From: a virus
Reading direction: 5' to 3' (one strand)
Length of the DNA stretch: 64,000 nucleotides
Virus record (IMG/VR): IMGVR_UViG_3300032242_001280
Shown one piece after another: positions 36,413-56,083 of this stretch; positions within the stretch are counted from its first letter, which is position 1, and every line of letters starts with the position of its first letter. Below the pieces are notes generated by a model. The model ran no database searches, was not told the DNA's origin, and saw nothing but the letters and a program-made list of their open reading frames with translations. A program made the position numbers and the translations under genes.

Positions 36413-36737
36413 GCTTTAATTTAGCAGCATAACGGTCTGGTGTCAATTTATATTTGGTAATAAATGCATTATGCAAGTCTTTTGGATCAATCTGAAATGC
36501 CATGCAAATGCTTTGCATTTCATGATCTATGCTATCATAATCTATTTTTTCTATTTCTGGCAATCTGCTAGCTAGTCTTGCAACTGCATTTTTCATATTG
36601 TTTGGTTCTGCGCTACGAACAATATTGTCATATTTCCAACGAGCAGCCATAAGACCACGGGCACCCGCACTTACTGGTCTACGGCCTTGGATGCCTACAC
36701 TCATCGCTGCTTCGGAAATAATCTCGTTAATTTTCAT
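36381..36737 (-). CDS. Putative head internal protein (CTS-like N-terminus MKINEIISE)
   Basis: Start moved to ATG 36737; YDSID..MQ.IC......LH..F..KY..TPD.Y domain. Confidence 0.6.
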   Translation of the reverse strand: MKINEIISEAAMSVGIQGRRPVSAGARGLMAARWKYDNIVRSAEPNNMKNAVARLASRLPEIEKIDYDSIDHEMQSICMAFQIDPKDLHNAFITKYKLTPDRYAAKLKHDRQNRPKSI

Positions 36738-36738
36738 T

Positions 36739-37689
36739 TTATGCTGTTCTAATCTTTTTAACAATTGCTGGTATAAAAAGTTTTTTAAGCAATTCAGAAC
36801 TATAAATTTCTAATGTTGCTTCTTTAAATTTTACCATTTCTTCTTTTGTAAATTCAAAGAATCCTGCGCATCTTGATTTACTTTCATCCACAAATGCTTC
36901 ACTATCTGTGATTGTTTCTTGACGCTCAGCCAATGCTGTTTTCTTAGCAGCATCTTTGAATAATTCCTTATCTTCGTTGGATAATGAATCCCAAAATTCA
37001 TTTGATATTACGATAGTTGTTAGAAATAAACTATGCTTTGTATTTGTAATATAAGGAGTTTTTTCTTTTACTCTGTCAAAGCGAACTAATGTTGTTTCAC
37101 CACCATCAAAATCAATATCTGGGTTCTCATCAAAGTGCACTGATAAATCATGTCCACTGCGATCCAATACAGGATTTGCTCCTAGAATATTATATATTTC
37201 TTCTGCAATAGGGCTTTCAGAACAACTAATTGTTTTTCCCTTAATATCTTCCAAATTCTTAATTGGTGAATTTGATACCATCACTCTAAATCCACCACTA
37301 TATGTAAATGCCAAGCCTCTAACTTTGGTGTTTTTGCTTAATAAATCAAGCAAATTTTCGCCAATTGAACCATCTAGTACTCTGGTTGCATGTGCATGAT
37401 CTTTAAATAAAAATGGTAAATCAAAAATGTGAAAATTTTTATATTTTGTACCAAGTGCAGTAGTTTGAAATTGCGCCATCTGAAAACGATTATTAACTAA
37501 ATCACTAAAAAATCCTCTTCTGTTAGCAGCATTTGGATCATTATAAAATTCTGATTTTGTTAAAATTGTTACATTGATTCTACCATTTGTTTGTTCTTCA
37601 ATAATATTCTTAAATGCATTTGCTGTTCTAAGAAATAAGTGCAGTGGTTCGTGTGCAACAACCCATGTTAAATTAACTTTCTCAGTCAT
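36739..37689 (-). CDS. dctP: TRAP transporter substrate-binding protein (DctP-like), no signal peptide
   Basis: F...IEEQTNGRINV, IFDLPFLFKD..HA.RVLDG.IG, GGFR, PIKNLEDIKG, LGANP, FWDSLS. Confidence 0.8.
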   Translation of the reverse strand: MTEKVNLTWVVAHEPLHLFLRTANAFKNIIEEQTNGRINVTILTKSEFYNDPNAANRRGFFSDLVNNRFQMAQFQTTALGTKYKNFHIFDLPFLFKDHAHATRVLDGSIGENLLDLLSKNTKVRGLAFTYSGGFRVMVSNSPIKNLEDIKGKTISCSESPIAEEIYNILGANPVLDRSGHDLSVHFDENPDIDFDGGETTLVRFDRVKEKTPYITNTKHSLFLTTIVISNEFWDSLSNEDKELFKDAAKKTALAERQETITDSEAFVDESKSRCAGFFEFTKEEMVKFKEATLEIYSSELLKKLFIPAIVKKIRTA

Positions 37690-37761
37690 ATGATATTCCT
37701 TGGCTTAATGTATTTATTACTAGTTTTTTTTCATGGACTAGTCTTATTAACTGATATATTA

Positions 37762-38553
37762 TTATTTACTTAACGCTAATATATTGTTTTTTATAATTGC
37801 ATTTATAATATTGGCTACACTTTGATGCGTTTTAATTCCTGGATGGTTATCTCGCCCAAAATCTTTCCATGCAATAAAATCTTTCATCTGATCGCTTTCA
37901 TACCATACAGGTTTGGAATAAAAACTTTCTACATTAAAGTTTATTTTAACAAAATTTGTACTAACTTGGATAACAGGTATATTATGCAATTTTGCCAATA
38001 GATCAACGGTTCGAACATACTCTAACAAATGCAATTCGCTGCAGTTTTGACTCCAGTATATCATATGATTTTGTTCTTCTTCAGTCATCTCATCAATCCA
38101 GCCAGGACCACGGGTAACACGAACATAATCATCTTTAGTAGGTACAGCATATGAAAACCTAGCACAGTCTGCCCACATAACTACCAGTAATTTAACATCG
38201 ATATTTTCACATGAACTGTTAAAAAATGAATTAATGTTGCGCATTATAGCAAGATTATCACCACCTGTGCTAGCAAAGCTAAAGTTTGTTAAATTATGTT
38301 TTTTTGCTACCAGATCACAGAAGCGCAATTCTACTGGTATACCTACGCCAACAGAAAAGCTAGGACCAAAACTTGCTAATGCTGGTGTATCTCTTTCTAA
38401 TTGAGGACCACGAAACCCGTAGTCGTTAAATTTATAATCAAAATCAGGTCCACGATAATTGCCATGCCAATTTCCTGCTCTATCTGGCCCATGATGCGGC
38501 GTTTGTTTTTTAGCAGTAGGCAGTATACAAGATATGTATTTTAGTTCTGGCAT
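37762..38553 (-). CDS. SGNH/GDSL-hydrolase-like protein
   Basis: YKFNDYGFRG, FGPSFSVG (block I), NF..GGDN, DNHPG..TH (block V). Confidence 0.55.
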   Translation of the reverse strand: MPELKYISCILPTAKKQTPHHGPDRAGNWHGNYRGPDFDYKFNDYGFRGPQLERDTPALASFGPSFSVGVGIPVELRFCDLVAKKHNLTNFSFASTGGDNLAIMRNINSFFNSSCENIDVKLLVVMWADCARFSYAVPTKDDYVRVTRGPGWIDEMTEEEQNHMIYWSQNCSELHLLEYVRTVDLLAKLHNIPVIQVSTNFVKINFNVESFYSKPVWYESDQMKDFIAWKDFGRDNHPGIKTHQSVANIINAIIKNNILALSK

Positions 38554-38762
38554 TATACTTTGCCGTCTGACCTTAATTGAGGAGGACGCCCAAGTTTGTC
38601 TGTTTTGTTACCAAACTTAGCTGCTTGCTTTTGTGTTTCACCTGGATGGATATCGACCGTTAGCGCATTGGCATAACGAGGGTCTTTTGCAGCCTTCTTA
38701 GTAGCAGGAACTACACCAACACCAGCGGCTTCATCGAGGTCAAATAATTCAGTTAATAACAT
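38553..38762 (-). CDS. Putative head internal peptide (MLLTELFDLDE leader)
   Basis: Acidic leader followed by a basic peptide. Confidence 0.55.
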   Translation of the reverse strand: MLLTELFDLDEAAGVGVVPATKKAAKDPRYANALTVDIHPGETQKQAAKFGNKTDKLGRPPQLRSDGKV

Positions 38763-38767
38763 TCAAA

Positions 38768-39610
38768 TCACCACTTACGGCAAGACCAGTATCTCGCCTT
38801 AGTGCGTGGACCTGGATTCTCACAATGATGTCTAGCACGGAAACTCTTACGACGCTTTGGATTACTCTTCTTAATACGCATATTAGGATCACCAAAGTTG
38901 ACTTTCTTTACATTGCCGCTCTTTGGGTCTTTAACAAATACTTTAAACTTCTTTACATCACCACGCATTGGTTTGCCAAGTGCAACCTTACGACCATGAT
39001 ATTCTGCCTCATAAAGGTCATCCATAAAGAAACGAACTTCTTGATCGCCCTTGTATAGAACAACATCATCGTCTTCTTCTTCAACATCCCACCCCATATT
39101 ATCAAGCATCTTTGCGGCTTGGGCATGTTTCCCTTCATCGCCATTCCACCACATTTTTACCAATCGTTTTAAGGTTTGTTCATTGTTTTTTAGTGAAACT
39201 ACTTCACCTTCTTCAATGCTTTCACCATAATCTTTCTTATCGGTGTTTTCACGATAGCCTTTGGAATATGCTTCTACTTCACTTGGGTCAGTTAATTTTT
39301 CATGACTGTGACCACCATGATTGTTTGGAACAAGCTTGTGTGGATTGTGTCTGCGACCATAGTAAGAATCTGCACGACCGCGATCATATGGTGAACCATG
39401 CTTATCTTCTATATCATCTAAATTTTCAAGCATATTCATAAGTTTTTCATCGGCCATGAGGATAATGCCATCGCCATCATCGGTCATTTCCATGATATGC
39501 GTTTCTACTTCAATTGCATTGCCAAATTCTAAAAACACACCATCACCAATAGTTGGTCTGTTTTCTTGTATTGCTGTAAGTTTTTCAATTATATAACGCA
39601 TATCACTCAT
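38768..39610 (-). CDS. Modular putative internal-head polyprotein with basic C-terminal domain
   Basis: Modules GSPYDRGRADSYY..., and KKVNFGDPNM..NPKRRKSFRARHHC..ARYWSCRKW, separated by ESIEE and LYE linkers. Confidence 0.65.
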   Translation of the reverse strand: MSDMRYIIEKLTAIQENRPTIGDGVFLEFGNAIEVETHIMEMTDDGDGIILMADEKLMNMLENLDDIEDKHGSPYDRGRADSYYGRRHNPHKLVPNNHGGHSHEKLTDPSEVEAYSKGYRENTDKKDYGESIEEGEVVSLKNNEQTLKRLVKMWWNGDEGKHAQAAKMLDNMGWDVEEEDDDVVLYKGDQEVRFFMDDLYEAEYHGRKVALGKPMRGDVKKFKVFVKDPKSGNVKKVNFGDPNMRIKKSNPKRRKSFRARHHCENPGPRTKARYWSCRKW

Positions 39611-39632
39611 TTTATAAATCCTAACATATTAT

Positions 39633-40115
39633 TTATTTTGCTTTAGTGCTTACACGGATTGGAGCTTTTCCGTTGCCACCGCTGTCTTTGCCGCCACGCC
39701 CTGATGCATTTTGTGCTTTGCGTTTACGGGTAACTGCGCTCTTTTTTTCCGATGCACTCATACTACGGGCTTTTGCTGCTGGTACGCATTTGGCATAGCC
39801 ACTTTTACTGCCACTTGTTCCGCATGGCGGATGTTTGCCACCTACTTTCTTACCAATATTAACCCACTTGTCTTTAAACCACTTATGAAGATTGCTGCTT
39901 GCTTCTGGTAGAATTAAATTACCGCAGTTCATACAATAATCAACTTGTTCCAATAAAGTACTTTCACTTATTGGATCACAACTGATTTCTGTGCTCTCGC
40001 TGCGTTTCTTTTTATTCTTGACGCAGTTTGGATATTTCTTTCCAAACATAGTCTTCATGCCTTCTTTATGGTAACCTTTCCAGCATGCTTCGCCAAGAAT
40101 TTCTTCCGCTTTCAT
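39633..40115 (-). CDS. Modular basic polyprotein (MKAEEILGE leader)
   Basis: CWKGY..G.K...PNCV module plus LHKWFKDKWVNI..PCG..KCVP module, joined by Glu linkers. Confidence 0.65.
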   Translation of the reverse strand: MKAEEILGEACWKGYHKEGMKTMFGKKYPNCVKNKKKRSESTEISCDPISESTLLEQVDYCMNCGNLILPEASSNLHKWFKDKWVNIGKKVGGKHPPCGTSGSKSGYAKCVPAAKARSMSASEKKSAVTRKRKAQNASGRGGKDSGGNGKAPIRVSTKAK

Positions 40116-40954
40116 TTGGATTTATTTCCCCAGTTTGCAGCACCCTTCTTACGGCAAGTAACTAGCGCACCACTGGCATAAGCACTAGGCCATACTTTAT
40201 AACGACTTTTTACTTTATAATAACAAGCATCTTGTTTTTCATCAACACGCGATTCTGGTAGTATAAGTCCACCACAGTGTGGGCAGCTTTCATTCATATC
40301 ATCATGCGCAGCACTGCCAACGATTTCATTATAATTGTCCATGCAAAGATAATCATGGTTCTTGCTCAGCGCAATCATCTTTTCGGCAACATCGTGCAAA
40401 TCTAGATCAGTCTTTGCATCTTCACGAGCATATTCCATCATACGAAGTAGTAGCGGAATGTCTAGTGATACTGTATCTGTCTTATCTGCTTCCATTACAC
40501 TTTCATCATGCTTTGGCTTCTTGCCACGCTTTTTCATATTAATAGCAATGGCTGCTTGTTGTGCTGCGCTACTTGCTTCACCAATACTTTTCTGCGTACC
40601 ATCAATGTCAAATGTATTCTTTATTTTCTCAAGTGTTTTTAATAAAATTTCGCGATTTGGTTCTGCTGGATTCATTCCAAATTCAGCACGAGCAACATCA
40701 ACTAATTTCAAATATTGTTCAGGCTCAGCTCCGCCCATCATTCCACGAGAATTTTTTGAAATAACTCGCATGATAGCTTGGTTGCGTTTGTTTGGTGGGA
40801 GTTTATCTGCAGTAAAAACTTCGTCGATTGCTGCTGATATTGTATTGGCATTGCGAACTAGTTGTTGCGCAATATGCGGATTTCTTAAAAGATTAGTGTT
40901 CTTTTGTATATCAAGTTTATTAGATGATTCTGCAATAATATCTTTTATTCTCAT
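40112..40954 (-). CDS. Modular polyprotein (MRIKDIIAE leader)
   Basis: Modules AAQQAAIAINMKKRGKKPK, DIPLLLRMMEYAREDAKTD and DACYYKVKSRYKVWPSAYASG, each preceded by x-x-E. Confidence 0.65.
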   Translation of the reverse strand: MRIKDIIAESSNKLDIQKNTNLLRNPHIAQQLVRNANTISAAIDEVFTADKLPPNKRNQAIMRVISKNSRGMMGGAEPEQYLKLVDVARAEFGMNPAEPNREILLKTLEKIKNTFDIDGTQKSIGEASSAAQQAAIAINMKKRGKKPKHDESVMEADKTDTVSLDIPLLLRMMEYAREDAKTDLDLHDVAEKMIALSKNHDYLCMDNYNEIVGSAAHDDMNESCPHCGGLILPESRVDEKQDACYYKVKSRYKVWPSAYASGALVTCRKKGAANWGNKSK

Positions 40955-41550
40955 TATACTCTCGCAGGTTCTCTTGCTGGCTGCGCGGGTGCAGTTGCAG
41001 CAGTAGCAGGTTTTACTTGTGGTTTCTGTGTGATAGTTTGGTTGTAAGCTGGTTTCAAAGGTTGCTTTTGTTGCTGCGCTGGTTGCTCTGGCGGTAACGC
41101 ATTTTTTGATTTAAGATAGTTATACAGTTTATTGCCACCGTACAGTAACGCAATAACACCAGCAACTGGCAACGCATATGAAACTGCTAGTTTAGCAAGA
41201 CCAGTTATTGCTGCGTTTGGCAAATTATCGCCAATAATCATAGAAAGATCACTTGCAGCTTTTGCAGAATCTGCCCATGGAGTTATTTGGTTTGCAAGAA
41301 TTTTTCCTGTTGCAGCAGGATCAGATACCAAATTAAAAGTAAGATTGGCAAGATTCCATGCACCTTTTGGATGAGTAGTGGCTGCTGCCAATGTAACAGC
41401 TTTTATTGGATTTGTCACAACCCAAAAAACGCCCTTAGCGCCTTTTTGCAATCCCCATGCAAGTGCTTGTAATATTTTATCACCAGATGCTTTCATATCT
41501 GCTTCGGATAATAATTCATAATCTTCTAAAATTATTTCGTTGATTTTCAT
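40954..41550 (-). CDS. Putative internal/membrane-active protein (MKINEIILE leader)
   Basis: Start at ATG 41550; hydrophobic YALPVAGVIALLYGG; Pro/Gln/Ala-rich tail. Confidence 0.6.
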   Translation of the reverse strand: MKINEIILEDYELLSEADMKASGDKILQALAWGLQKGAKGVFWVVTNPIKAVTLAAATTHPKGAWNLANLTFNLVSDPAATGKILANQITPWADSAKAASDLSMIIGDNLPNAAITGLAKLAVSYALPVAGVIALLYGGNKLYNYLKSKNALPPEQPAQQQKQPLKPAYNQTITQKPQVKPATAATAPAQPAREPARV

Positions 41551-41551
41551 A

Positions 41552-43144: not shown

Positions 43145-43678
43145 TCATGCTACTTCTCCTTGTTTTGCAAATTTTTTAAGTGTTTGCGCAACACGGGAAA
43201 AATCTTTATCATCATATTTGATACCAATTCCGCCAGCCATTTGCCAAGAAGCAATGTTCTTGCCATAATCATCAACGAGAATATTGCTCATGCCATATTC
43301 ATTAGTGGCAAACTGCGCTTTGTTATGCGTAAGTTCAATGCCGCTTGGCAGCATATCACTGAAATGCATATTAATCCATGCTCGTTTGCCACTTTCGCTG
43401 CGAGGATCATTAGCTAGTGGGGTACTACAAATATAATATTTTCCATAAAATTCTTTGACAGTACGCACAAGTTCCCTTGCATGAGGAAGCAGTGGAAGGT
43501 CTACCCAAAAGGTAGGATGTTGGCGCACTAATTCTAATTTAGCTTCTGGGTTGTCAATGTCTTTGTAATGGCTCTTGCCATCCAACCTTGCCCATTCACC
43601 AAAGAAATCGGCAAGAACGCCGTCCATATCAAGATATACATTAAATTCTTGGTGGGCAACGACTTCACTGATACGCAT
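43145..43678 (-). CDS. 5'(3')-deoxyribonucleotidase, HAD superfamily (NT5C-like) with CTS-like leader
   Basis: YLDMDGVLADF, ICSTP, K.AW, ILVDDYGKNI; start MRISEVVAHQE at 43678. Confidence 0.85.
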   Translation of the reverse strand: MRISEVVAHQEFNVYLDMDGVLADFFGEWARLDGKSHYKDIDNPEAKLELVRQHPTFWVDLPLLPHARELVRTVKEFYGKYYICSTPLANDPRSESGKRAWINMHFSDMLPSGIELTHNKAQFATNEYGMSNILVDDYGKNIASWQMAGGIGIKYDDKDFSRVAQTLKKFAKQGEVA

Positions 43679-43683
43679 AATTT

Positions 43684-43792
43684 TATTTATCCTAGTTTTT
43701 GTCATGCTTAATCATAGCACAAGCTGTGGATAAGTCAAGTCCTATTTTTTCCTTGACAGATAAGCTATTTGTGCTATTATAAGGTATAAATA
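43684..43792. promoter_or_regulatory. Back-to-back divergent promoters (sigma70-type plus late-type on each strand)
   Basis: Minus strand: TTGACT..TGTGCTATGAT then ATAAATA (43684-43690). Plus strand: TTGACA..TGTGCTATTAT then TATAAATA (43785-43792). Confidence 0.75.
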
Positions 43793-44348: not shown

Positions 44349-47300
44349 TTACGATAGCTGTCTTACTGTCCAACCTGTAAAACCTGAATTATTCACTAGC
44401 GGCGTGAAATGGCGTAGTGCATCTTGATAGGAATTAAATTCTAATTCTTCGGATATCTGCGTTCCATTTTGAACAAATAAAGCATATGTGCCACGACCAC
44501 CAGGATTTGCAATTCTAGGTGTGTTATTAGTTACACTAATATTGGGATCATTTGCCCAATCTGGCGTAGGTTCAGCAGCAGGTTGATTTACAATAGCCTC
44601 GCCTGGTCCCATATAGAATAGTTCTTCTTCAGCGGTGTCTGGATCAATGGCATACATCGCCATGCCCCTAATTCCACCTAATGTGCCACCCCAACGCATT
44701 GAACTGCTATAGCGTCGTTGAACACTATTAGCATACTCTTTTGCTTGTTCTGGATTGTAGAAAGTAAATGAAGTAATATTTGCTCCAGTATCTGTGTATT
44801 TTAACACATACCTTACAGAACGACCTGTAGCAGCACCAGAAGCAGTTGTACTTGATTGTGGTGGTGCCGATGGTGGTGATGGCGCACGGTCTTCGCCACG
44901 AGTGGTAATACGCATCATTTCATCACGCATATATTGTAGTGAATATTCATCTAATACACGAACAGAAAGACGATCCGCTCGCAAGCCGCTTACGCCCCAG
45001 TTTACGCCCCAGTGTTTCTCTATTACTGGTATAGCTAGTTTTTCTATTTCACTTGAATATGTTGAATACATCTCAACCTGTGGTATAAACACCATAGTTT
45101 TACTGTCTGTTTCATTTGGATTGGTAGAATAGTATTGAACAGTCACTAAACTATAACCAGGATAGCGTAGGGCTATATCGCCCAGCGGCAGTTGACGAGC
45201 GTTAGCAAACTTTATTGCCGTCTCAATCATATCATATGGTGCAGTGCCGTTGATTTTTACAACATTTTCACCGTCTTCATTTTCCAAGAAACCATCAACT
45301 GGACCAGACCCAAGTGGTGCAACAGGCTTACGACGCTCTTGAGCAGTGCGTAATTCTTTTACAAGTTGTTCTTTGTTTATTGCGCCAGCAGTATATTTGG
45401 CAAACAGTTGCATCGTGTTATCTTTTTCACTGATACCGCCGCTTACAAATTTATACAGTTTCTTTTGATATTCTTGACGAGCATCTTCGGTATCAGCGGC
45501 TGCTCCCATAACACGAACATAACGCAACATAGTCTTGCGAATTTCTTCGTATTGCTCAAAGTAATTGCCGCCAGCACTGCGGAACTCAATATAGTTTGGC
45601 TTGATGTTTACGCTTACATAACGGTCGCCACGAGGAACCAACAGTTTATTGATTTCTTTTTTAGCAATATCTTCCAATCCACTACGCATCTTATCAAGGA
45701 TAGCAGGAATATTCTTTCTGCCACTTCTGCCACGCACTTCACGCTTGGCTTGGTCAAAACTACTCTTTGTCCATCGTGAACCAGCACGACCAAATGCTTT
45801 TAACACATACTCATCACCAAGCAACATAATCACTTTAAGATGGTCAATGTTTTCCATTGTTTGGTTAGGGATACTAACACCAATATGGAAACCAGTTGTG
45901 CGATTAGTATAATAATCATTGCTCTTTGCCCAACTGAAAACATTTTCTAACGCAGCCAAACCATCTTCCAAGTTCATTGGCGGTGATACAAGTTCAATGC
46001 CACCATCGCCATCATTGTTTGGACTATCAAGCGAACTATCTGGTTCAAATATCCAAGTGGTTTCATCACGGTCTGCTCCGTGATAACCGCTGCTTGCTCG
46101 TGCCTTATAACCAGTTGTGCGTCTAAAATCATCAACGACATCGCCAATGTCTTCGGTTGGTTCTTCTCTACTGCTGCTAAATGTATAATGCGGCCAAGTT
46201 AGCGATTCACGAGTATTGCGATTTACCCAACGCATCCAATCATACATATCACCAATGTTATTGCGATAAAGGAATTGACGCCAAATACCTTCTTCGTTTT
46301 CGCTCATCCAATTTTCACGAACGCTGTCTTTGGCATCATCAAGTTCACGCTCACTTGCTTCGTCCGCAGGAGTATCGCCTAATTCTTCTTGAATTGCATC
46401 TTTCCAATCTGTGGTATTTTCATAATTATCGTCATAATATTCAGATTGATAATCACTAAATGCTTCATAGAATAATTCTAGCGCACTTTCAACCTCACGG
46501 CGGGTATTGTGATCGCCAGCAAAAAAATCCATAACATCACGCTGACGATCACGATATGAAGCCGTGCCAGGAAAATCCTCATTGGTATCCATATCCTCTT
46601 CCTCTTCCTCTTCGCCTTCTTCGCCACCAAGACCAGGAATATACATTTCAGTTTCAAAACCAACTTTCATACTCTTGGCAAATGGTGTTTGGGAAAACTT
46701 TTCAAGAGATGTAGGACTCATATTGATTTCGTTAAGGATACTTTCTTCAAGGCTTTCTTCTCTATTTGGAACTTCTGCCAATTGCCAAGGTGCTGCCAAA
46801 TTATGTTCCTCGGCATAACTTACAGCATAACGACGAGCACCAGTTACACTTGCAGCGTTAAATGTATGAACAACACGACTTTCACTATCCAAAATATTAT
46901 ATGTTGTGCCATTTGTAGCAGTGATGTTTGCTTGTGGTCTTGGGATAGCATTGCCCGCAATATCATAACCACGATCAATTTCTGCTTGTGTATATTGGCG
47001 AGGTTGTTCTGGTTGTGGGCTTGGTTGAGGAATTACTTGACCTTGCGTATCCCATAGATTATTGTTGTTTGGTGATCTTATAGCAATACTTGCTAATGGT
47101 AGACCATGTTCTTGCGCAAATCTTTGGGCTGCTTGCGTTGCTGCGTAAAAACTTTGTGCTTGTGTTGCTAATAATTCTGTGCCATCGCTACGGTTTACAA
47201 CAACATAGGTTGCTGCGCTACCACTAGGCAATTGTAGTGCCTGTGTACCTGCACCAGGTATTGGTGTATTTGTGTCATCACTTGCAAGGGTTAGAAACCA

Positions 47301-49223
47301 ATCGCTATCACGATAGCCATATTCACGGGTCATACGAACAGCAATATCTCGTGCTTGCTCATTATCTGGCGCACGAAACTGTGTAACCGCCATTTGATTA
47401 TTTGCTAAGCGAATCATATACATTGGTTGCATAGATAATACAGGTCGGTCACCGCCAATTGATAATGGTTGGCGTGTTAGAATATCACCTGCTTGACCAT
47501 CACGGGTATCTTTTAACGCAACTAAGTCAAATGAACGACCACTTGCTCGCACTATGCGTGCGGCAATATCATATACATCACTGTAAGTAATTCTTGGAGA
47601 TACTACAAATTCTTGAATTACGCCACCAGTTATACGACTAATAATCTGGAATGTGATACCACCAATACCATCATAATCTACATGCGGTTCATCATCAGCC
47701 GCTAGTTTAGCATACGGATCACTTGACTGTGGTCGGTCTGACTTTGCTTTCTTGGCAAAATCACGCTTGCTTTGTGCATTCTTAATATAACTTACCAATG
47801 CTGTACGAGGCAGATTTCCAGTAGCAAACTGTGTAAAATACTTGATAGTATCAGTTTCATCTTTCTTATCAGCAGTTAACAGTTTCGCAAATTTCTTTTG
47901 ATATTCTTTGCGTTCCATCTCTGGATGTAGTGCGATATTCATAGCATATACAACACGGAGCAGTGTATTCACTACTTCATCAGTATTCATATCAAGCCAA
48001 TTGCCGCCTGGTGAACGAAACTCTACACGATTATCTTTAGTATTGATAGAGGTAAACTTATCAGTATAACCATTATGAATAAGTTTGGATGCTACGGTAT
48101 TCAAGCTCTTACGCATAGCATCTACGGCTTGGTCTGCTTTTGTAGGGTTTTGTTTAATGAATGATGCAATCTGGTCAAAAGCACTGCGAGCATAAGAATT
48201 GCCAAGACGACCAAACTTTTCAAGAATATACTTGTCGCCTAAAAACAACGCAAGTTTAACATAATCAAGTTTATCTAACTGATAACCTGGTATAGAGATA
48301 TTCATATGCAAACCAGTTTTATCATTGGTATAAGCATTGCCATCTTTTGCCCATGCTTTGACTTTATTAATTTGGTCAATCATAGTTGGAATATCAAGTG
48401 GCGGTGATACGAACTCTAAACCTTCGCCACCTTTGCCACGAGTAGGTGATAGGCTGCTATCTGGTTCAACCACATACGCATCGTTTGGCTTTGCAATACT
48501 ATGATAACTACCACTCTTAATAGTTTTCATACCAACAGCACGGCGGAAATCACCTACATCAACAGTAGAACGAGTTCTGCGGTCATATTCATCTGGTTCA
48601 GTCCAAACTGGCCAAGATAGCCCAAGATTGCTATCATTTGCCAAATCACTCATGTAATTACCACCATAGGTATCTTCTAAAAATTTTTCCAGATAATCAT
48701 CTATGTTATCATCATCTTCAATATTATCACGCCAAGTTTGATAGTATTCTTTTCTAAATGTTTCGTATGGATCAATGGCATCTAATTCACTAAACAGTTC
48801 TTGTTGGTTTTTATAATCACGACCATAACGCTTGTCAATAAAATCTTGAATACGATCACCTGCCCAAGTGTCCCATAGACCACTACCAATATAATCTTCC
48901 CATGCATCCTTCATTAAATCAATTGCACGATTTACATCACGGCGACTATTGTGATCGCCAGCGAAGAAATTCATAAGGTCTCGTTCTAAGTTGCTCCAAC
49001 TGACAGTAGAAACACGCTCATCTTGGTCATAATCTGGTTCGCTATCAAAATCTTCATATGGATCATAATCATCGTCCTCTTCTTCTTCAAGATTAGTGAC
49101 GATAAGTTCAAATTCAAGACCTGCCTTAGCATTGGGAATCTTTGCCACCGCCGCACGAAGGGCTGCTGGACTCATATTCACTTCATTTAGGATTTCTTCA
49201 AGGATCAGGTCTTTGTTTTTCAT
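44349..49223 (-). CDS. 1624-aa polyprotein with two amidoligase (COOH-NH2 ligase, Amidoligase_2-like) domains and repeated small accessory domains
   Basis: Two sets of G[LF]E[FT]E / EPDSSL / [LI]E[FL]VSPP / TG[LF]H / EFRS.GG motifs; start MKNKDLILEEILNE at 49223, 5 nt after GTAAATA. Confidence 0.8.
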   Translation of the reverse strand: MKNKDLILEEILNEVNMSPAALRAAVAKIPNAKAGLEFELIVTNLEEEEDDDYDPYEDFDSEPDYDQDERVSTVSWSNLERDLMNFFAGDHNSRRDVNRAIDLMKDAWEDYIGSGLWDTWAGDRIQDFIDKRYGRDYKNQQELFSELDAIDPYETFRKEYYQTWRDNIEDDDNIDDYLEKFLEDTYGGNYMSDLANDSNLGLSWPVWTEPDEYDRRTRSTVDVGDFRRAVGMKTIKSGSYHSIAKPNDAYVVEPDSSLSPTRGKGGEGLEFVSPPLDIPTMIDQINKVKAWAKDGNAYTNDKTGLHMNISIPGYQLDKLDYVKLALFLGDKYILEKFGRLGNSYARSAFDQIASFIKQNPTKADQAVDAMRKSLNTVASKLIHNGYTDKFTSINTKDNRVEFRSPGGNWLDMNTDEVVNTLLRVVYAMNIALHPEMERKEYQKKFAKLLTADKKDETDTIKYFTQFATGNLPRTALVSYIKNAQSKRDFAKKAKSDRPQSSDPYAKLAADDEPHVDYDGIGGITFQIISRITGGVIQEFVVSPRITYSDVYDIAARIVRASGRSFDLVALKDTRDGQAGDILTRQPLSIGGDRPVLSMQPMYMIRLANNQMAVTQFRAPDNEQARDIAVRMTREYGYRDSDWFLTLASDDTNTPIPGAGTQALQLPSGSAATYVVVNRSDGTELLATQAQSFYAATQAAQRFAQEHGLPLASIAIRSPNNNNLWDTQGQVIPQPSPQPEQPRQYTQAEIDRGYDIAGNAIPRPQANITATNGTTYNILDSESRVVHTFNAASVTGARRYAVSYAEEHNLAAPWQLAEVPNREESLEESILNEINMSPTSLEKFSQTPFAKSMKVGFETEMYIPGLGGEEGEEEEEEDMDTNEDFPGTASYRDRQRDVMDFFAGDHNTRREVESALELFYEAFSDYQSEYYDDNYENTTDWKDAIQEELGDTPADEASERELDDAKDSVRENWMSENEEGIWRQFLYRNNIGDMYDWMRWVNRNTRESLTWPHYTFSSSREEPTEDIGDVVDDFRRTTGYKARASSGYHGADRDETTWIFEPDSSLDSPNNDGDGGIELVSPPMNLEDGLAALENVFSWAKSNDYYTNRTTGFHIGVSIPNQTMENIDHLKVIMLLGDEYVLKAFGRAGSRWTKSSFDQAKREVRGRSGRKNIPAILDKMRSGLEDIAKKEINKLLVPRGDRYVSVNIKPNYIEFRSAGGNYFEQYEEIRKTMLRYVRVMGAAADTEDARQEYQKKLYKFVSGGISEKDNTMQLFAKYTAGAINKEQLVKELRTAQERRKPVAPLGSGPVDGFLENEDGENVVKINGTAPYDMIETAIKFANARQLPLGDIALRYPGYSLVTVQYYSTNPNETDSKTMVFIPQVEMYSTYSSEIEKLAIPVIEKHWGVNWGVSGLRADRLSVRVLDEYSLQYMRDEMMRITTRGEDRAPSPPSAPPQSSTTASGAATGRSVRYVLKYTDTGANITSFTFYNPEQAKEYANSVQRRYSSSMRWGGTLGGIRGMAMYAIDPDTAEEELFYMGPGEAIVNQPAAEPTPDWANDPNISVTNNTPRIANPGGRGTYALFVQNGTQISEELEFNSYQDALRHFTPLVNNSGFTGWTVRQLS

Positions 49224-49239
49224 GATATTATTTACCCGT

Positions 49240-52200
49240 TTATTGTAGCCATGCACCAGAAGCAGGTTGGTCAAGCACGATTGGTGGTATGCTATGATCA
49301 TCTGGCTCCAAGTATAAACTTTTAGCATCAAAGGTACTTGAAAGACGATCTGCATATGATTTTGCCCAAGCATATGCTTCACTTGGTGTAGCAAAGCGTT
49401 TTGGGTCAGAGAGATTAGAACCATATGGCGGTTCGCCAATCCATACTCTATAAATCTTTGTGCTAGCAACAAATGCTGATCTTGCTGCTGCATCTGCTTT
49501 ATCGGTCTGACGCTTCTGCAAGCGCATCTTCAACACATTTTGGTCAATTAAACCACTGGCATACATGGTAAAGTTTGAAAGTTGGTCATCATCTTGTGGA
49601 ATATGTTTGGCAATCATTGCATAAAGTTTTTTAGCATATTCTTCACGATATGCCTGTGGATCAGCCGCAATTGCCATTACCTGAACATAACGCAACACAG
49701 TATTCTTGATGTCGTCTATATGTTCCATGAAGTTGCCGCCAGCACTGCGGAACTCAATGTAATTTGTTTTTATATTCACACTTACATAACGATCAGTACT
49801 AATTGAACGATTTATAATCTCTTTTGCAACTTTTGCTAAGTTGGTGCGCAGTTTTTTTGCATACTCTTGTGGTGTTGTTGCGCTGCCTCGTCTTTTTAAC
49901 ATCTTTTGTATTTGTGTAAACATACTTTTAGTATATGCGTTACTGCCACGATCAAATAGGTCTAGCACATATTGATCACCAAGCAGCATTACTACTTTGA
50001 GTGGGTCAACTTTTGCTTGTAGTTCTTCTGGCAAACTAACTCCAACATGGAAACCAGTTGATGTATTGCCATAATAACCGTTTTGTCCTGCCCATTGGAA
50101 GAACTTATCAAGTGCTGCTATACCTTGTTGCAGCGGCATTGGCGGTGAAACAAGTTCAATGCCACTATCATCACCACTAATACTGCCATCAGGCTCAAGA
50201 ATCCAACTAGTAGCATCGCGTTTTGCGCCATGATATCCACTACTGACTTTTGTTTTAAAGCCGCTGTACTCATTCCAATTCTTTGCAAGTTGCGCTATCG
50301 TTATCACGCCACTAGGTTGCATATTTGGTTTTAAATAAGGGAACCATGCTCCACCACCGCCATATTCTGCATATTTTAGAACCCAATCGGATATGTGTTT
50401 AACATTTTCTGACTTTAGAAATTTTTTCCATTGCTTTTCATAATCTTCTGTGGAAAGTTCATTTATTGTTTTTGTAAAAAATATTGCTCGCGCCCGTGCA
50501 CCCAATCCATATGGATTGTTTGGTTCATCGGCAATTCTATCTCTTATCTCTCGCTGGCCTGACCAACCACTTCTGCGCCCGCCAAGATCGTCATAGATTT
50601 TTTTAGCAATTACTTTTAAATTTTCTGGTTTCAGCATTTCATCAATCATGCTAGGATTTTTCTCAACTATATAATCAATGAATGAATGTTTCAAGGTCAA
50701 TAAGTCATCATTTATTGCTGACAAATCACTTTCACCAGTACCAGCATCCTTATACCAGTTTAAGACTTCATCTTGCCATGTTCTAGTAATTGGAAATTTA
50801 ATATCTTTAGTCATATCCCAATTTCTTGCATCTTGGCGAGGATCAGATTCATCGTCATCTTCATCTTCTAAACCAGGTACTAGCATTTCTGCTTCAAATC
50901 CAATAGTCATTGCTTGTGCTTGTGGGGTGGCAGCAAACTTTGCCAATGAACCAGGTGACATGTTTACTTCATCAAGCTCACCGACATAATCTACTTCGCT
51001 GCCGCCTGTATCTGGCTGAACCCAACGGTCCCAAGGAAAAACCGCTACCTGACGGTCAGGATAATCATTACCACCGCCTACAGTTCCTATGATAGAGCCA
51101 GCATGTTCGCCAACAGAACTTGGACCAAGCAACTGCATAAACTTTGCTTTTTCTTGTGGTATTCTAAAATCATGACTTGAAGTTGCATTTCCTCTATTGC
51201 CATAATAAACATCTACGGCAATATTCGGTCTTGATAGTGCAGATGCTGCATAAACTCTATATAATTTTTTAAGACTACCTAATGTTCCCTCTAGAAAAAA
51301 TGTATTGGGAAGATTTACAAAACGAACATATCCTTGGGTAAATGCTTCTTCATATCCATCAATGTCGTTATCATAAAGCCATGACAGATGTTCTTCTGAA
51401 CCAACATATTCTACACGACGATTAGGCAAAATCCAACCATGTGTTTCATTTGTATCAAGTGCTTCTTCTACACTTTCTTTTTTGGCAGTGGCAGCACGGA
51501 TTTTAGCAATAGCACTTTGTGCGGCATTATCACTCTTGGCTGGTTGTTGTGCTTCTGCGTCCCATTTCTTGTGTAGGAATGTTAATAAACCTTTTAGGTC
51601 TGCAACACCAATCTTACGCATAGCAGCAATAATTTTATTAGCCTGATCATAGCCACTATTGCCTGGCTTGCGAGCATTTGAAATTTCATTGCGCAGACCT
51701 AAGTCATCAGCAAACTGACCGCCGTTCCAATAAGTTAAACTATAACGCAGTTCATTTGCTCGCTTGGATAACTCGCTGCGACTTTTCTTGAATATTAGTT
51801 CTAACCACGGACCTAACATTCGCTTACCATAATTACTGGTACTTACATAACCAGTTTTCTTTTGGCCACGAATTAAATCTTGGGCTTTGCTTACTGGTAT
51901 TGCTCGCTTGGTGTCCTGTAATTTCCATGCATTTTCGTTGCTATAGAGATATGTTGGTAAACCACGCTTCTTTGCTACAATCATCAACTGACGAGTAGTT
52001 GGACTTGCAAACTCACCTGCTTCTTTAAGCAGAATATGAACTGCTGTAATCGCATCTGCTGGTATTGTTGGCTCACGAGCAAATATACGGTCTTCGCTTT
52101 CACTGTGTTTTTGCTTATCAAATCCTGCCCAGTAATCAATAGCCTTCACAGGATAACGACGATTAAACCAATTACCATCAAGATTAAACATAACGGCAGT

Positions 52201-54918
52201 GCCACCTGTTAACTCGTGATAGCCGCCTACTTTGCTGCGTGTAGTAGATAAGAAATAGTTATATCCTTTTGGCGCATACGGTGCTTCTACGGTGCCAGTA
52301 GAAATGCTCAACATAAACTCATTGTTCTTGAGAATGTTTAATGCTGCACCCACGCTGCCTGTATAATGGAACAACACTGGTGATGCTGCTTCATCTAAAC
52401 TTTCTGTTTCTTCTAAATCTTTACGATGACTACGCTTGTAGTATGAACACCAACCATTTGCCGCAATCTTGCCACTAACAGCCGAACAACCGTGTGGAGG
52501 ACGCCACATAGTGCAGTGATCACAGCGTTGACCATTGCGAGGCATAGCCTGATACTTTGCTTCGGCTTTGGTTGATTTTTCTGCAACTTCATTCAAGCCT
52601 TCCGCCACACTTTCTTTTACTGCAAATTGCGCCATATCTGCAATAGGAATAACCTTTGCATTTATACTTGGTAATTTATTCAATATAGCTTTGTGTGCTC
52701 TATGGGTGCCATCGGCTATCCAAAACTGCCCATTTTGTCTTTTAACAACAATAATTGGATATTGCAAGTCTGCTTTTTGCATCCGAGCCATAGATTGTGT
52801 TTCATCTTCTTCACGACCTGCAATTTGGTCAGCAAACTGTTTTGGATCAACTTTAACAACAGGATATTTGTCTGCTAATGCAACTAAATCTCTAATTTTA
52901 AACTTAAATGATTTTCCATCTATGCCAATACCTGCTTCTTGTTCAAATCCTTCACCTTCTTCTAATTCTTCATTAACTTTGTTTTTACTGATTTCTTCAA
53001 TATCACTATCAGGAACTAATCGTGCAGGTATACTATCTTTTTTAAGTGTTTTATAAGCCCAAAATCTATGATGACCATCTAATACTTGATACCCACCTTT
53101 GTATTTGCGGACTAAAATAGGTGGTATATTTTCATTCTTCTCTAGACCATCTATAATTTTCGCAACATTTGCTTGGGCTTTTGGTAATTTCATCTTTTCA
53201 TCTGGTTCAAACCCAACAAGTTCTTTTGTAGGAATGTTGATGATAGGCAGTGAATCAAACCCGCTATCATCTACTTCTGCACCAAAATAGTCTGGATCAG
53301 TATATAGTTTTACTTTACCTTCGTTTGCCAAGTCAGGAGCAACCATGTAACTGTTCTTGCTGCCTGGCGGAAACTCAAAGCGTTGCGCACCCTTTTCACG
53401 AGCAGCAGCACGAGCCTTCTTAAACTCCAGTGTCCACCAACGACGATTAGTATAATCCTTATTGCCCATATAGGCTTTTGGATCAGTAATACGCAACTCG
53501 TTCCATTGGTCAGGAGTTAGGTCTTCGTTTATTTGAACGCCCAACGCTTGCAACATAGCACGAGCAACTACACGATCTTTTTCTTTTTCTACTTCTGGCA
53601 ACTGACCATAAGTTTGTTGGGCAAGTGCATAACGCTTCTTTTTCTTATCGGGAATTGTAGGCGCATCTAACTGCAACTTGCCCATATAATCAGCCACTGC
53701 AGTCTTATTCCAACCATCGTGGATTGCGCTAGCAATAGCGTCAACATCTGTTATACCACTATCAATCATACGCTTGGCAGCGGTTGCACTTTCAATGTTC
53801 GCTAACCAACCAAAGTTAGCACCTGGTGTGGATAACCCATAATGATAAGCATCATCTAGGGCTTTATCACTTATGTGAGCAAGTTGCTCTACTGATAGGC
53901 TTTCAGGGATAATGCTTTCAATAAATTTACTTTCATTTGAGTTTCGGGTCAAATTGTAGCGCACTGCATATCCATCATCAATAGTTCTTGCATCGTAACC
54001 AAGAGATGTGGCATAACGGTCTACAAGTCTATTGTATAGCTTGGCACGGCTTTGTTTGTTTGATCCAGATTCAACTTCTTTGTCAACAGAGAAAGTTATT
54101 TGTAATGGTTTGTGTTTTTTAATAAATTTTTGTATAGCATTTAAAACAGTTGCAAATATTCGTTGTGCATCACCTTCACCAGTGACATCTTGGCTGTTGT
54201 TTCTCCAGAACTCAACTTGCCATTTGGCGTCGCCTTCGTTATTAAACATGACACTTAAATTTGTTCCATCTGGTAATGGAACTAGCATATCATAGCTACC
54301 AAATTCACTTTTTTCCCACTTGCCTCGGTAAGGTTTATCAAAGGTTTCTTCCATACTTTCGCCAAGTCCCATACCACGGCGAACTGCTTGAAATAGCGTC
54401 TTGTCATCAACCGTCATATTTTGTGGCACACGAGTAGCCCGTTCAAACGCATCTGGATCACCATCTTCTGCAGCTTTTCTTGCATTGGTTGCGCTTGTTA
54501 AACGAGGACTTTCCATAAAAGAAAGTGGTTCAAATTTATAATAGCCGTGCGCTACTTCTTTTCCATTGTACTGTTCCAGTACTGGTCGCATGCTTGCCAT
54601 GTCATCTTCACCAGCCACAAAAGTGGCACTGCGGAAACCTTTGTCATAAAGATATGCGGCTGCTTGTAGGAATGTTTTGATGTTTGGGTCTTCAACTAGA
54701 TGTCCTTGAACTTGTGGATATAATAATTTAACCCATGCTATTTTTTCTACATAGGTAAGTGGATTTTTCTTTGCATCATGGCTTTTACTTAAGAATAGCG
54801 CCCATGCGCCTTGTTTTGCCACGCTAGCAATAGTATTAATTAAACCTTCGTGTCCATAATGTGGAGGATTCAGACGCCCGAAAGCAAACGCGATATGAGG
54901 ATTATTAGCCATTTTCAA
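49240..54918 (-). CDS. 1892-aa polyprotein: HIGH nucleotidyltransferase, unknown domain, RyR, 2x ParB-like, HiPIP, ART-like, unknown domain, amidoligase
   Basis: FGRLNPPHYGH; AIHDGW..YGQLPEVEKEKDR; VLDGHHR and IADGTHR; CDHC..C..GWC; LFHYT..LSTTRS..ESEDR; GFEAE/EPDGSI/IELVSPP/TGFH/EFRSAGG. Confidence 0.8.
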   Translation of the reverse strand: MKMANNPHIAFAFGRLNPPHYGHEGLINTIASVAKQGAWALFLSKSHDAKKNPLTYVEKIAWVKLLYPQVQGHLVEDPNIKTFLQAAAYLYDKGFRSATFVAGEDDMASMRPVLEQYNGKEVAHGYYKFEPLSFMESPRLTSATNARKAAEDGDPDAFERATRVPQNMTVDDKTLFQAVRRGMGLGESMEETFDKPYRGKWEKSEFGSYDMLVPLPDGTNLSVMFNNEGDAKWQVEFWRNNSQDVTGEGDAQRIFATVLNAIQKFIKKHKPLQITFSVDKEVESGSNKQSRAKLYNRLVDRYATSLGYDARTIDDGYAVRYNLTRNSNESKFIESIIPESLSVEQLAHISDKALDDAYHYGLSTPGANFGWLANIESATAAKRMIDSGITDVDAIASAIHDGWNKTAVADYMGKLQLDAPTIPDKKKKRYALAQQTYGQLPEVEKEKDRVVARAMLQALGVQINEDLTPDQWNELRITDPKAYMGNKDYTNRRWWTLEFKKARAAAREKGAQRFEFPPGSKNSYMVAPDLANEGKVKLYTDPDYFGAEVDDSGFDSLPIINIPTKELVGFEPDEKMKLPKAQANVAKIIDGLEKNENIPPILVRKYKGGYQVLDGHHRFWAYKTLKKDSIPARLVPDSDIEEISKNKVNEELEEGEGFEQEAGIGIDGKSFKFKIRDLVALADKYPVVKVDPKQFADQIAGREEDETQSMARMQKADLQYPIIVVKRQNGQFWIADGTHRAHKAILNKLPSINAKVIPIADMAQFAVKESVAEGLNEVAEKSTKAEAKYQAMPRNGQRCDHCTMWRPPHGCSAVSGKIAANGWCSYYKRSHRKDLEETESLDEAASPVLFHYTGSVGAALNILKNNEFMLSISTGTVEAPYAPKGYNYFLSTTRSKVGGYHELTGGTAVMFNLDGNWFNRRYPVKAIDYWAGFDKQKHSESEDRIFAREPTIPADAITAVHILLKEAGEFASPTTRQLMIVAKKRGLPTYLYSNENAWKLQDTKRAIPVSKAQDLIRGQKKTGYVSTSNYGKRMLGPWLELIFKKSRSELSKRANELRYSLTYWNGGQFADDLGLRNEISNARKPGNSGYDQANKIIAAMRKIGVADLKGLLTFLHKKWDAEAQQPAKSDNAAQSAIAKIRAATAKKESVEEALDTNETHGWILPNRRVEYVGSEEHLSWLYDNDIDGYEEAFTQGYVRFVNLPNTFFLEGTLGSLKKLYRVYAASALSRPNIAVDVYYGNRGNATSSHDFRIPQEKAKFMQLLGPSSVGEHAGSIIGTVGGGNDYPDRQVAVFPWDRWVQPDTGGSEVDYVGELDEVNMSPGSLAKFAATPQAQAMTIGFEAEMLVPGLEDEDDDESDPRQDARNWDMTKDIKFPITRTWQDEVLNWYKDAGTGESDLSAINDDLLTLKHSFIDYIVEKNPSMIDEMLKPENLKVIAKKIYDDLGGRRSGWSGQREIRDRIADEPNNPYGLGARARAIFFTKTINELSTEDYEKQWKKFLKSENVKHISDWVLKYAEYGGGGAWFPYLKPNMQPSGVITIAQLAKNWNEYSGFKTKVSSGYHGAKRDATSWILEPDGSISGDDSGIELVSPPMPLQQGIAALDKFFQWAGQNGYYGNTSTGFHVGVSLPEELQAKVDPLKVVMLLGDQYVLDLFDRGSNAYTKSMFTQIQKMLKRRGSATTPQEYAKKLRTNLAKVAKEIINRSISTDRYVSVNIKTNYIEFRSAGGNFMEHIDDIKNTVLRYVQVMAIAADPQAYREEYAKKLYAMIAKHIPQDDDQLSNFTMYASGLIDQNVLKMRLQKRQTDKADAAARSAFVASTKIYRVWIGEPPYGSNLSDPKRFATPSEAYAWAKSYADRLSSTFDAKSLYLEPDDHSIPPIVLDQPASGAWLQ

Positions 54919-54955
54919 TTCCAGATAAAATATTTATCTGCTTTGAAACTTGACC

Positions 54956-56083
54956 TTAATTTGGTGTCCAGCGATGCCTTGGCACTAATTTTATGTTTGG
55001 GTCGCCATAGTGAACATAGCCTTCGCCGCCGCGCTGACCTTTGGTAGATTGCTGAATATCACCGCCTTCGCTATCTAATTGGTCAATAATTTGATTTTTG
55101 ACTGTACGAAGATTCTCTAGTGTAGCAAAGGTTGCAATAAAACCTTTTTGGTTTTGCGCAATCCAGTCGCTAATCTTTGCTTGCATTGGCGCACTTTGTT
55201 TGCTGCTACTGTTTAACCAGTTTACAAACTCACTAGCAAGATCGTTTGTTCTACCAACTCTTGCCATTTGATTATTAAAGTTATAAAGAACGCCTTTAAA
55301 CCCTGCCATTTTCATGGCAGCGAGGCGGTCATCGTCCAAGAAGTTATCAATTACATTTTTGTTTGCAGCAATATACTTTTGTAAGTCTTGTAACTTTTTT
55401 GTATCTACTTTTATAGGCTGTTGTGCATATCGTGGACCTAACACAATCAATCCTTGTGTTTGATTAAATTTAGTGAAGTCATCTATTGGTTGTTGTTGAT
55501 CATCGCCCATTCCAAATTGTGGAAAGAAAGCATGCCCAACAACGGCTGCAGTTGCTTTTGAAATACGCTGCCCAAGTTCAGTTGTTGTTGGTACGCTATA
55601 TGTTACATTGTTTGGTGTAAAGGTATATGAATCATTTTCCATTTGTGGGCGGCGCATAAACAACAAATCGCCATACACATATCCACGAAAATCTTTAGGG
55701 GTTGCTGCTTCGAATAGCGCCCATAAACTAGCATACTCGTTTGCAAAACGCATACGCTCATCTTCTTTATCTGGCGTTACATTGCCAGTGCTCATAATAA
55801 ATTTTACAAGTTCTTGTGGACTGCGACTTTTACCACTGTCATTTGGCTTTAACCAACCGTTGTGCCCAACCATTATAAAACTGCCATCTGGTTCGCGTCC
55901 CCAATATACTTGAGGTTTACCGTCCCATTTCCAACGAATTTGAGTTGGGCTACGAGCAAGATCACTGAGGCGACTAACTGCTGTCTCTGCTCCAGCACTG
56001 CCGCTGATAAGCACAAGGTCTTCTACATGCTGAAATGCACGACCAACTTTTGGGGCTTCGTTAATAATTTGGTTTATAAACAT
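54956..56083 (-). CDS. Ligase-like covalent nucleotidyltransferase (DUF6267-like) with CTS-like leader MFINQIINE
   Basis: KWDG (motif I), YGDLLF (III), GEGYV (IV), IKLV (V); QHVED N-terminal motif. Confidence 0.65.
   Translation of the reverse strand: MFINQIINEAPKVGRAFQHVEDLVLISGSAGAETAVSRLSDLARSPTQIRWKWDGKPQVYWGREPDGSFIMVGHNGWLKPNDSGKSRSPQELVKFIMSTGNVTPDKEDERMRFANEYASLWALFEAATPKDFRGYVYGDLLFMRRPQMENDSYTFTPNNVTYSVPTTTELGQRISKATAAVVGHAFFPQFGMGDDQQQPIDDFTKFNQTQGLIVLGPRYAQQPIKVDTKKLQDLQKYIAANKNVIDNFLDDDRLAAMKMAGFKGVLYNFNNQMARVGRTNDLASEFVNWLNSSSKQSAPMQAKISDWIAQNQKGFIATFATLENLRTVKNQIIDQLDSEGGDIQQSTKGQRGGEGYVHYGDPNIKLVPRHRWTPN

Follow-up and report, generated by a model that had tools for sequence, protein, structure and literature searches.

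We analysed a 64,000-nucleotide stretch of viral DNA (IMG/VR virus record IMGVR_UViG_3300032242_001280; hereafter the window), in which two adjacent minus-strand genes, gene A (44349..49223) and gene B (49240..54912), carry three amidoligase (COOH-NH2 ligase) modules. Our data suggest, with a probability of roughly 0.55, that genes A and B encode late polyvalent cargo polyproteins, which would be packaged by means of a leader, processed by the prohead protease and injected along with the DNA, and whose ligases would then act on a host target. In the proposed mechanism, the polyproteins would be made late in infection and a T4-type N-terminal leader would bring them into the assembling prohead, where a T4-type prohead protease would cut after Glu at the [LI]xE sites bracketing each module. 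Cleavage would free three amidoligases of the glutamine synthetase (GS) fold, each with trailing mini-domains, among other modules. The freed ligases, ejected with the DNA, would draw on host ATP and act on a host target early in infection, and the bonds formed would be amide bonds, most likely of the gamma-glutamyl type. The three ligase paralogues probably differ in specificity.

The source of the window is a T4-superfamily jumbo phage, whose family B DNA polymerase (33049-35706) shares ~45% identity with the polymerases of Atu_ph07, Phosso and the Rak2/GAP32 group. The PHROG matches surrounding the ligase locus are phage families, and a megablast search of the locus against the phage collection gave zero matches. 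The nearest record, G001, is a 51-kb fragment with neither a ligase nor a protease. Among the other relatives, G002 is a complete 338-kb genome with terminal repeats and a ligase that is 56% identical, and G003 carries a ligase that is 73% identical.

Three amidoligase modules in two polyproteins

As read from its open reading frame (ORF) and translation, gene A encodes a 1624-aa polyprotein in the order leader, ligase 1, four mini-domains, linker, ligase 2 and mini-domain tail. Gene B encodes a polyvalent polyprotein of 1890 aa, counted from the ATG, for which Pfam and PHROG matches give the order HxGH nucleotidyltransferase, DUF6934-like module, two ParB-like modules, HiPIP-like module, two modules without assignment, ligase 3 and tail. 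The start of gene A, MKNKD at 49223, lies 16 nt past the gene B stop. Extending gene A back to 49493 would make it overlap gene B; this reading was rejected because the relatives begin at the MKNKD equivalent directly after the gene B stop. In G002 (2845 aa) and G003 (>2226 aa), genes B and A form one ORF, and the gene A leader becomes an internal linker.

Pfam and alignment delimit amidoligase module 1 (47724..49181, minus strand), which starts with VNMSP. Module 2 (45294..46727, minus strand) starts with INMSP, and module 3 (49549..50967, minus strand) starts with VNMSP after GELDE. The [VI] codons of these [VI]NMSP motifs lie at 49181, 46727 and 50967, where the original prediction had placed the domain starts, and L-[ND]-E directly precedes each of them. 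Pfam PF12224 (Amidoligase_2) matches gene A with 46.8 bits in two stretches and gene B with 25.9 bits, above the cut-off of 22, and the PHROG family 'amidoligase enzyme' also matches. Over ~480 aligned residues, domain 1 shares 31-33% identity with the others and domains 2 and 3 share 42%, so that the three domains are indeed paralogous, as had been claimed. The motifs GxExE, EPD[SG]S, GxExVSPP, TGxH and EFRSxGGN were found in all three paralogues, in line with the predicted retention of the ExE, ExxSP, TGxH and EFR motifs. The long acidic insert described after the first ExE motif is likewise present in all three, with 13-16 Asp/Glu in the 40 residues past GxExE. The 26 nt of identical DNA said to be common to two domains was located at 45565..45590 in ligase 2 and 49733-49758 in ligase 3, where it encodes the (Y)IEFRSAGGN motif. 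A run of this length was reached in 9 of 2000 codon-resampling simulations; the identity, considered as a possible sign of gene conversion, is therefore a minor and only mildly unusual feature on which nothing is built here.

The fold assignment was also borne out. An AlphaFold model of ligase domain 2, built with an alignment of 55 family members, reached a mean predicted local distance difference test (pLDDT) score of 89. Exhaustive structural comparison placed human GS (2ojw) at the top, with a Z-score of 12.1 and a root-mean-square deviation of 3.6 over 193 residues. Ten GS-type chains scored Z >=10, followed by glutamate-cysteine ligases (Z 8-9), PafA (4bjr, Z 7.8) and Dop (9cku, Z 7.6). 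All of ranks 1 to 19 belonged to GS, glutamate-cysteine ligase or PafA/Dop, and unrelated folds appeared from rank 20 on. The fold is clear only with the exhaustive aligner: Foldseek against the PDB gave GS matches only at E ~2e-3, and searching PDB sequences with a profile of the ligase alignment returned noise only, with no sequence-level match. The residues GxExE, ExDxS, E, GxH and ExR, which were mapped onto the metal and ATP residues of GS by motif order and not from coordinates, do not vary among the 55 sequences, whose mean column identity is 31%. Such invariance among diverged sequences argues for selection for catalysis. Judged from the alignment and the model, the modules are catalytically competent enzymes of the GS/GCS2 class. 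They differ from the Pfam model by a helical insert of ~130-150 residues (model helices 68-181), because of which the Pfam matches are split.

Units of ~48 residues follow each of the ligases. Four such mini-domains, with a predicted beta-beta-alpha-beta topology, lie between ligases 1 and 2 (46776..47663, minus strand), as delineated from the AlphaFold secondary structure and an iterated hidden Markov model (HMM). The C-terminal tail of gene A (44352..45287, minus strand) contains at least two more, with HMM matches at residues 1313-1354 and 1468-1511. With the iterated profile, one to four copies were found in 67 of 135 proteins, always C-terminal to a ligase; the E-values of this profile are valid for the 135-protein set only. 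The consensus is G.YvIvd...G.vvhrF.A.np.DA.e.A.rWararG. By sequence, the inter-ligase stretch is nearly specific to the clade, with 2 representatives among 1.8 billion proteins, and for the mini-domain region, whose AlphaFold model is of modest confidence (pLDDT 61), we found no Pfam family, no Atlas look-alike and no credible PDB match. A likeness to YegP/DUF1508 was considered and dropped, since nothing supported it. The mini-domains may serve as accessory units with which the ligase binds its target or a partner.

Glu-terminated junctions and portable leaders

The Glu before [VI]NMSP is invariant in the 55-sequence alignment, where only 24 columns are, and the Met nearly so. Moreover, the pattern [LIVMFY]-x-E-[VILM]-x-[ML] occurs ~22 residues before GxExE in 96 of 104 relatives with an intact N-terminus. 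Stand-alone relatives carry a leader of 8-24 residues before the motif, most often 13, typically MRLNEIFEEKLDE/VNMSP (here and below, a slash marks the putative cut after Glu). In 119 long fused relatives, 143 of 159 ligase starts have L, I or V two residues ahead of the Glu. In the ligase 2 model, the leader is disordered (residues 1-6, pLDDT <50) and high confidence begins at the motif. Across these alignments, the conservation of the Glu-[VI]NMSP motif is far beyond chance.

A similar pattern is seen at the borders of modules that are unrelated to the ligases. Aligning the window's B+A with the corresponding proteins of six relatives (seven polyproteins) showed that the large junctions all have a conserved [LIV]-x-E with A, S, T or V after it, as in SVEE/S, I[PT]E/S, LDE/AAEK, DLDE/T, QLDE/AASP, SVEE/ALD, ELDE/VNMSP and ILNE/VNMSP. 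Module content varies between the relatives: the DUF6934-like and ParB-like modules are not in every one of them, some have an extra module after the HiPIP-like module, and the ligase 3 module is missing in four of the six (L007, L011, L013 and L017). The motif was found at 18 of 50 indel boundaries, compared with a background of 12.6% of random 12-mers, where neither the junction nor the indel counts are independent because the compared sequences are related. One viral collection holds at least 424 related ligase loci, and at least 166 proteins of 855-2440 aa carry a ligase fused to other domains, among them ParB_N, NT5C, cytidylyltransferase-like, DUF6934, GNAT, dCMP deaminase and gamma-glutamylcyclotransferase (GGCT). 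The 119 long relatives have one ligase module in 84 cases, two in 21 and three in 11.

The gene A leader, MKNKDLILEEILNE (49182..49223, minus strand), contains two [LI]xE sites, LILE and ILNE (MKNKDLILE-EILNE/V), and resembles a capsid-targeting sequence. The internal linker before ligase 2, ESLEESILNE (46728..46757, minus strand), is a copy of the end of this leader, with Glu at the putative P1 position. Six unrelated genes on the same strand of the window start with M-[KRFL]-x-x-[DEQ]-[IL]-[ILF]-x-E/[ASD], and all six encoded proteins are basic, with an isoelectric point (pI) of 8.4-9.8. Five of them lie within a cluster of mostly basic small proteins (36381..41550, minus strand), namely those at 36381-36737 (MKINEIISE/A), 38553-38762 (MLLTELFDLDE/A), 39633-40115 (MKAEEILGE/A), 40112-40954 (MRIKDIIAE/S) and 40954-41550 (MKINEIILE/D). 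The sixth is the DUF6267 gene (54956..56083, minus strand), which has the leader MFINQIINE/A and TATAAATA just upstream. Ten ORFs with a strict leader were found in the complete relative G002, including one for a gamma-glutamylamine cyclotransferase (GGACT) enzyme. In the window, a gene for an NT5C 5'-deoxyribonucleotidase (43145..43705, minus strand) has a leader-like MRISEVVAHQE at an internal Met with TAAATA before it, and NT5C is fused into ligase polyproteins in other phages.

The run of small basic proteins extends over 36381-42475 on the minus strand and is reminiscent of the T4 internal proteins; some of its members have Cys-rich or Lys/Arg-rich tails, and one matches DUF5872 weakly. 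A TRAP solute-binding protein of the DctP type (36739-37689, minus strand; E 1.5e-42) is encoded among these leader genes, where it is an unusual auxiliary gene.

Evidence for packaging and competing explanations

In T4, N-terminal propeptides of 10-20 residues target the internal proteins to the prohead core (in IPIII, the first 10 residues), and gp21 removes the propeptides by cutting after Glu (PMC9026906, PMC5694885). Residues 4 and 7 of the T4 leader matter for targeting and residues 8 and 10 for processing, and Alt, an injected ADP-ribosyltransferase, is handled likewise (PMC9026906, PMC5694885). A Peptidase_S77 protein of the gp21 type was found in four of five related records (G002, G003, Atu_ph07 and RsoM2USA); no S77 prohead protease was found within the 64-kb window. 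The major capsid protein of G002 contains YLAE/SASAG, at a position that we take to be that of the T4 gp23 maturation cut site. The protease homologue of G002 starts with MNNLLIE, which matches the 'LIE' near the N-terminus of T4 gp21 (PMC9026906).

A homologue of the ligases was detected in purified virions. Among the virion proteins, the supplementary table of the Atu_ph07 paper lists gp196, annotated as a hypothetical protein, for which 14 peptides gave 30% coverage. This homologue, AUZ94978.1, is a 500-aa protein that starts MRWQDISSKKLTE/LKMNSS (...KKLTE/LKMNSS). It was identified as coding sequence (CDS) 196 by gene order (195 is a 993-bp nucleotidyltransferase gene and 198 the portal gene) and by mass, computed as 57.93 kDa and given as 57.94 in the table. 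The gene is two genes from the portal gene, inside the CDS 170-215 cluster of virion-protein genes. The presence of gp196 in virions is the sole direct experimental datum, and it shows presence, neither cleavage nor ejection; targeting, cleavage, ejection and the chemistry of the ligases are what we infer.

Promoter motifs are consistent with late expression. TAAATA, the core of the T4 late promoter, lies at 49229..49234 (minus strand), 11 nt upstream of the gene A start, and further copies precede gene B by 24 nt and the DUF6267 gene by 13 nt. Of the 25 copies on the minus strand, eight are within 45 nt of the 30 gene starts examined. The copy upstream of gene B is part of a 21-nt inverted repeat, GCAGATAAATATTTTATCTGG (54921..54941, minus strand), which is conserved with one mismatch to L007. 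The replication genes have TTGACA-type promoters instead.

The original prediction had noted that the usual partner genes of such ligases are missing. This is correct for the window, where neither a glutamine amidotransferase nor a GGCT was found among the ORFs (for ORFs in 1-23353, among the matches listed), but it does not extend to the relatives. G007 and G009, whose ligase is 89% identical, have a 145-aa GGACT gene ~25 kb from the ligase; G002 has three GGACT genes, one of them starting MQVKDIITE/A; and several relatives are GGCT-ligase fusions with LNE/VNMSP at the joint. An amidotransferase was not found there either: the class II models GATase_2, _4, _6 and _7 gave no match in the relatives, including the complete G002, and no G002 ORF starts with Met-Cys. 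In a related ENA contig, L004, an S-adenosylmethionine decarboxylase gene (4710-5084) stands beside two amidoligase genes, one of them fused to GGCT, and a giant DUF6267 protein. The decarboxylase is a possible link to polyamines.

Virion delivery, as originally predicted, is genuinely but indirectly supported by the likeness of the leaders to those of T4, by the junctions, by the S77 proteases of relatives and by gp196, and it is weakened by gene B, which in the window lacks the N-terminal leader of its relatives. At the N-terminus it is 10 residues shorter than its orthologues, four of which carry a 10-residue leader such as MTLSHRTIFNE/A. Several further points weigh against the packaging of processed cargo. 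The [LIV]xE motif is short, its background is 12.6% per 12-mer, and its counts come from related sequences. The detection of gp196 is thin evidence, resting on one proteome of phage purified with polyethylene glycol (PEG), and the window shows no enrichment of the exact T4 late promoter TATAAATA, with 3 copies against 7.7 expected. Moreover, the model shows an ordered NMSP segment (pLDDT 96), and conservation of the Glu extends to proteins in which a separate upstream leader has an xE site of its own. The invariant Glu could therefore be an intrinsic structural or catalytic residue instead of a cleavage site. These last observations suit a reading in which the ligases are ordinary late enzymes of the cytoplasm, not deliberately packaged, with L-x-E-[VI]-N-M-S-P as the N-terminal element of the subfamily and the leader as a folding or regulatory extension. 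The NMSP segment is not merely ordered but packed in the model, [VIL]-x-M-S-P-x-x-L after the Glu is more conserved than a protease site needs, the window's gene B does without a leader, and PEG-purified virion preparations may contain contaminants. However, the same leader stands on unrelated proteins nearby and in G002, modules are swapped at [LIV]xE junctions unconnected with ligase domains, and gp196 was detected with 14 peptides as the product of a gene within the virion-protein cluster, two genes from the portal. We consider the cytoplasmic explanation doubtful.

If the ligases are packaged and processed as proposed, their substrates may nevertheless be other than a host target. They may be polyamines or other small amines, or else basic internal proteins or DNA-associated components of the phage itself; gamma-glutamyl-amine conjugates would be made and later removed by GGACT enzymes. 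The acidic loop suits a basic substrate, and the leader-bearing neighbour proteins are basic. The partner family is GGACT, which is fused to the ligase in some phages and bears a leader in G002, the decarboxylase gene adjoins two ligase genes in one related locus, and the structural matches include GS-family enzymes that gamma-glutamylate amines (9qur, Z 10.8; 8wwu, Z 11.7). However, a sealed capsid has no source of ATP, and therefore any action on amines or internal proteins would have to occur in the cell. In addition, no substrate-binding residues could be assigned, and the decarboxylase is a neighbour in one locus only. On balance this choice of substrates seems unlikely, if a little easier to credit than the cytoplasmic explanation. 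It is very improbable that the proteins are a non-catalytic filling of the head, an inner-body-like mass kept for bulk or charge. They are large, acidic and repeated, and the number of modules varies between close relatives, but the metal and nucleotide residues would hardly stay invariant across 55 sequences as diverged as these. Among the readings considered, packaged cargo polyproteins with ligases directed at a host target remain the one we favour.

An extension of this favoured reading can be put forward tentatively, and we think it unlikely. T4-like jumbo phages may inject a reversible, ATP-dependent system of gamma-glutamyl (isopeptide) tagging, in which at least three paralogous, protease-freed ligases tag host proteins or amines right at the onset of infection, co-packaged GGACT enzymes erase the tags and the mini-domains choose the targets.

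Further features of the locus and relation to known systems

Besides ligase 3, gene B contains modules bordered by the same kind of junction. The HiPIP-like four-Cys module (residues 776-827; 52438-52593, minus strand) scores 23.7 bits with Pfam HIPIP (cut-off 22), is flanked by [LV]xE junctions and is 87-94% identical across all relatives compared. The module at residues 843-1150 (51469-52392, minus strand) lies between LDE/AASP and SVEE/ALD and has zero Pfam matches. Its nearest named Atlas clusters are of the ADP-ribosyltransferase type (DarT/PARP 0.85, Arr 0.82), below the level of trust, and are a lead only. The DUF6267 protein has a KWDG motif that resembles motif I of ATP-dependent nucleotidyltransferase ligases. 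It is part of a giant protein in other phages, and phrog_455 spans both the DUF6267 protein and the N-terminal nucleotidyltransferase of gene B, which are therefore fused in other phages.

Farther upstream, at 59045-62221 (minus strand), the phage has genes for a 745-aa homologue of the ClpA/B-like AAA+ 'ATP-dependent protease' type and for a DnaJ-like protein, with sigma-70-like promoters; by these matches, the phage encodes its own chaperones. On the plus strand, five consecutive large ORFs (6063-13781) match Radical_SAM, two of them also SPASM. Beside this block, the neighbouring strand encodes two sugar-modifying enzymes, namely a DegT-type aminotransferase and an NAD-dependent epimerase (15515-17493). 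The block could be a peptide-maturation or sugar-modification cluster in a phage.

The Amidoligase_2/COOH-NH2 ligases of the glutamine synthetase-GCS2 superfamily were reportedly described by Iyer, Abhiman, Burroughs and Aravind in 2009. The modules studied here share with Amidoligase_2 (PF12224) the Pfam match, the catalytic fold of GS, the catalytic motifs, the occurrence in phages and the link to GGCT/AIG2-type cyclotransferases, through fusions and paralogues in the same genome. They differ in the helical insert with its acidic loop, the [LI]xE-[VIL]xMSP element with the leader, the one to four trailing mini-domains, the presence of one to three copies inside giant multidomain proteins and a homologue in a virion. 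They also differ in that the class II amidotransferase partner was not found, either in the window or, with the GATase_2, _4, _6 and _7 models, in the relatives. PafA joins the gamma-carboxylate of Glu to the amine of lysine, and its chemistry is a possible model. PafA and Dop share the GS-like fold class with the modules, whereas the likeness to PafA (Z 7.8) is well below that to GS (Z 12.1). No Pup-like substrate was identified in the Pfam scans, beyond which no search was aimed at Pup-like genes.

Polyvalent proteins combine two to fifteen unrelated effector-type domains, frequently but not universally with a zincin-like MPTase, and the embedded zincin-like peptidases have been proposed to process them; the paper that describes them, Iyer et al. 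2017, mentions amidoligases 0 times (PMC5512222). Genes A and B resemble these proteins (PMC5512222) in joining unrelated enzymatic domains in one very large phage polypeptide. The domains joined here include ParB-like and nucleotidyltransferase domains in the window and GNAT, deaminase and NT5C domains in its relatives. Domain content varies between relatives in both, and a delivered, early-acting role is predicted for both. Here, in contrast, the junctions carry [LI]xE sites of the prohead-protease type and the leaders are T4-like, and Pfam and PHROG scans found no peptidase family in genes A and B, in which ~480 residues of gene B matched no family. With T4 IPI-III and Alt, the system shares a short propeptide ending in hydrophobic-x-Glu (in gene A, six neighbours and across the family), the occurrence of an S77 protease in the lineage, promoter motifs of the late type and an enzyme as cargo. 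It differs from them in that the proposed cargo is a polyprotein of many modules (180-210 kDa), in which internal cleavage sites are putative, and that the enzyme class is an ATP-dependent amide ligase. The ligase family, the polyvalent proteins and T4 targeting and processing were known separately; their combination, the family-wide Glu rule and the trailing mini-domain are new.

Injected phage enzymes decide the first minutes of infection, and to our knowledge few are known, namely ADP-ribosyltransferases, virion RNA polymerases and anti-restriction proteins. The ligase family analysed here is large and uncharacterised, and it appears to travel in the capsids of T4-like jumbo phages in the form of cassettes between putative protease sites. 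If so, it would bring a new modification chemistry into the conflict between phage and host, and a reversible tagging system, should it exist, would give phages a new chemical means of host takeover or counter-defence, next to the ADP-ribosylation carried out by Alt. The rule of capsid targeting and gp21 cleavage would extend from the small internal proteins of T4 to polyproteins of ~200 kDa, and the swapping of modules between relatives would be explained. A leader together with [LI]xE would then be a simple sequence rule with which to predict capsid cargo in the genomes of T4-like jumbo phages.

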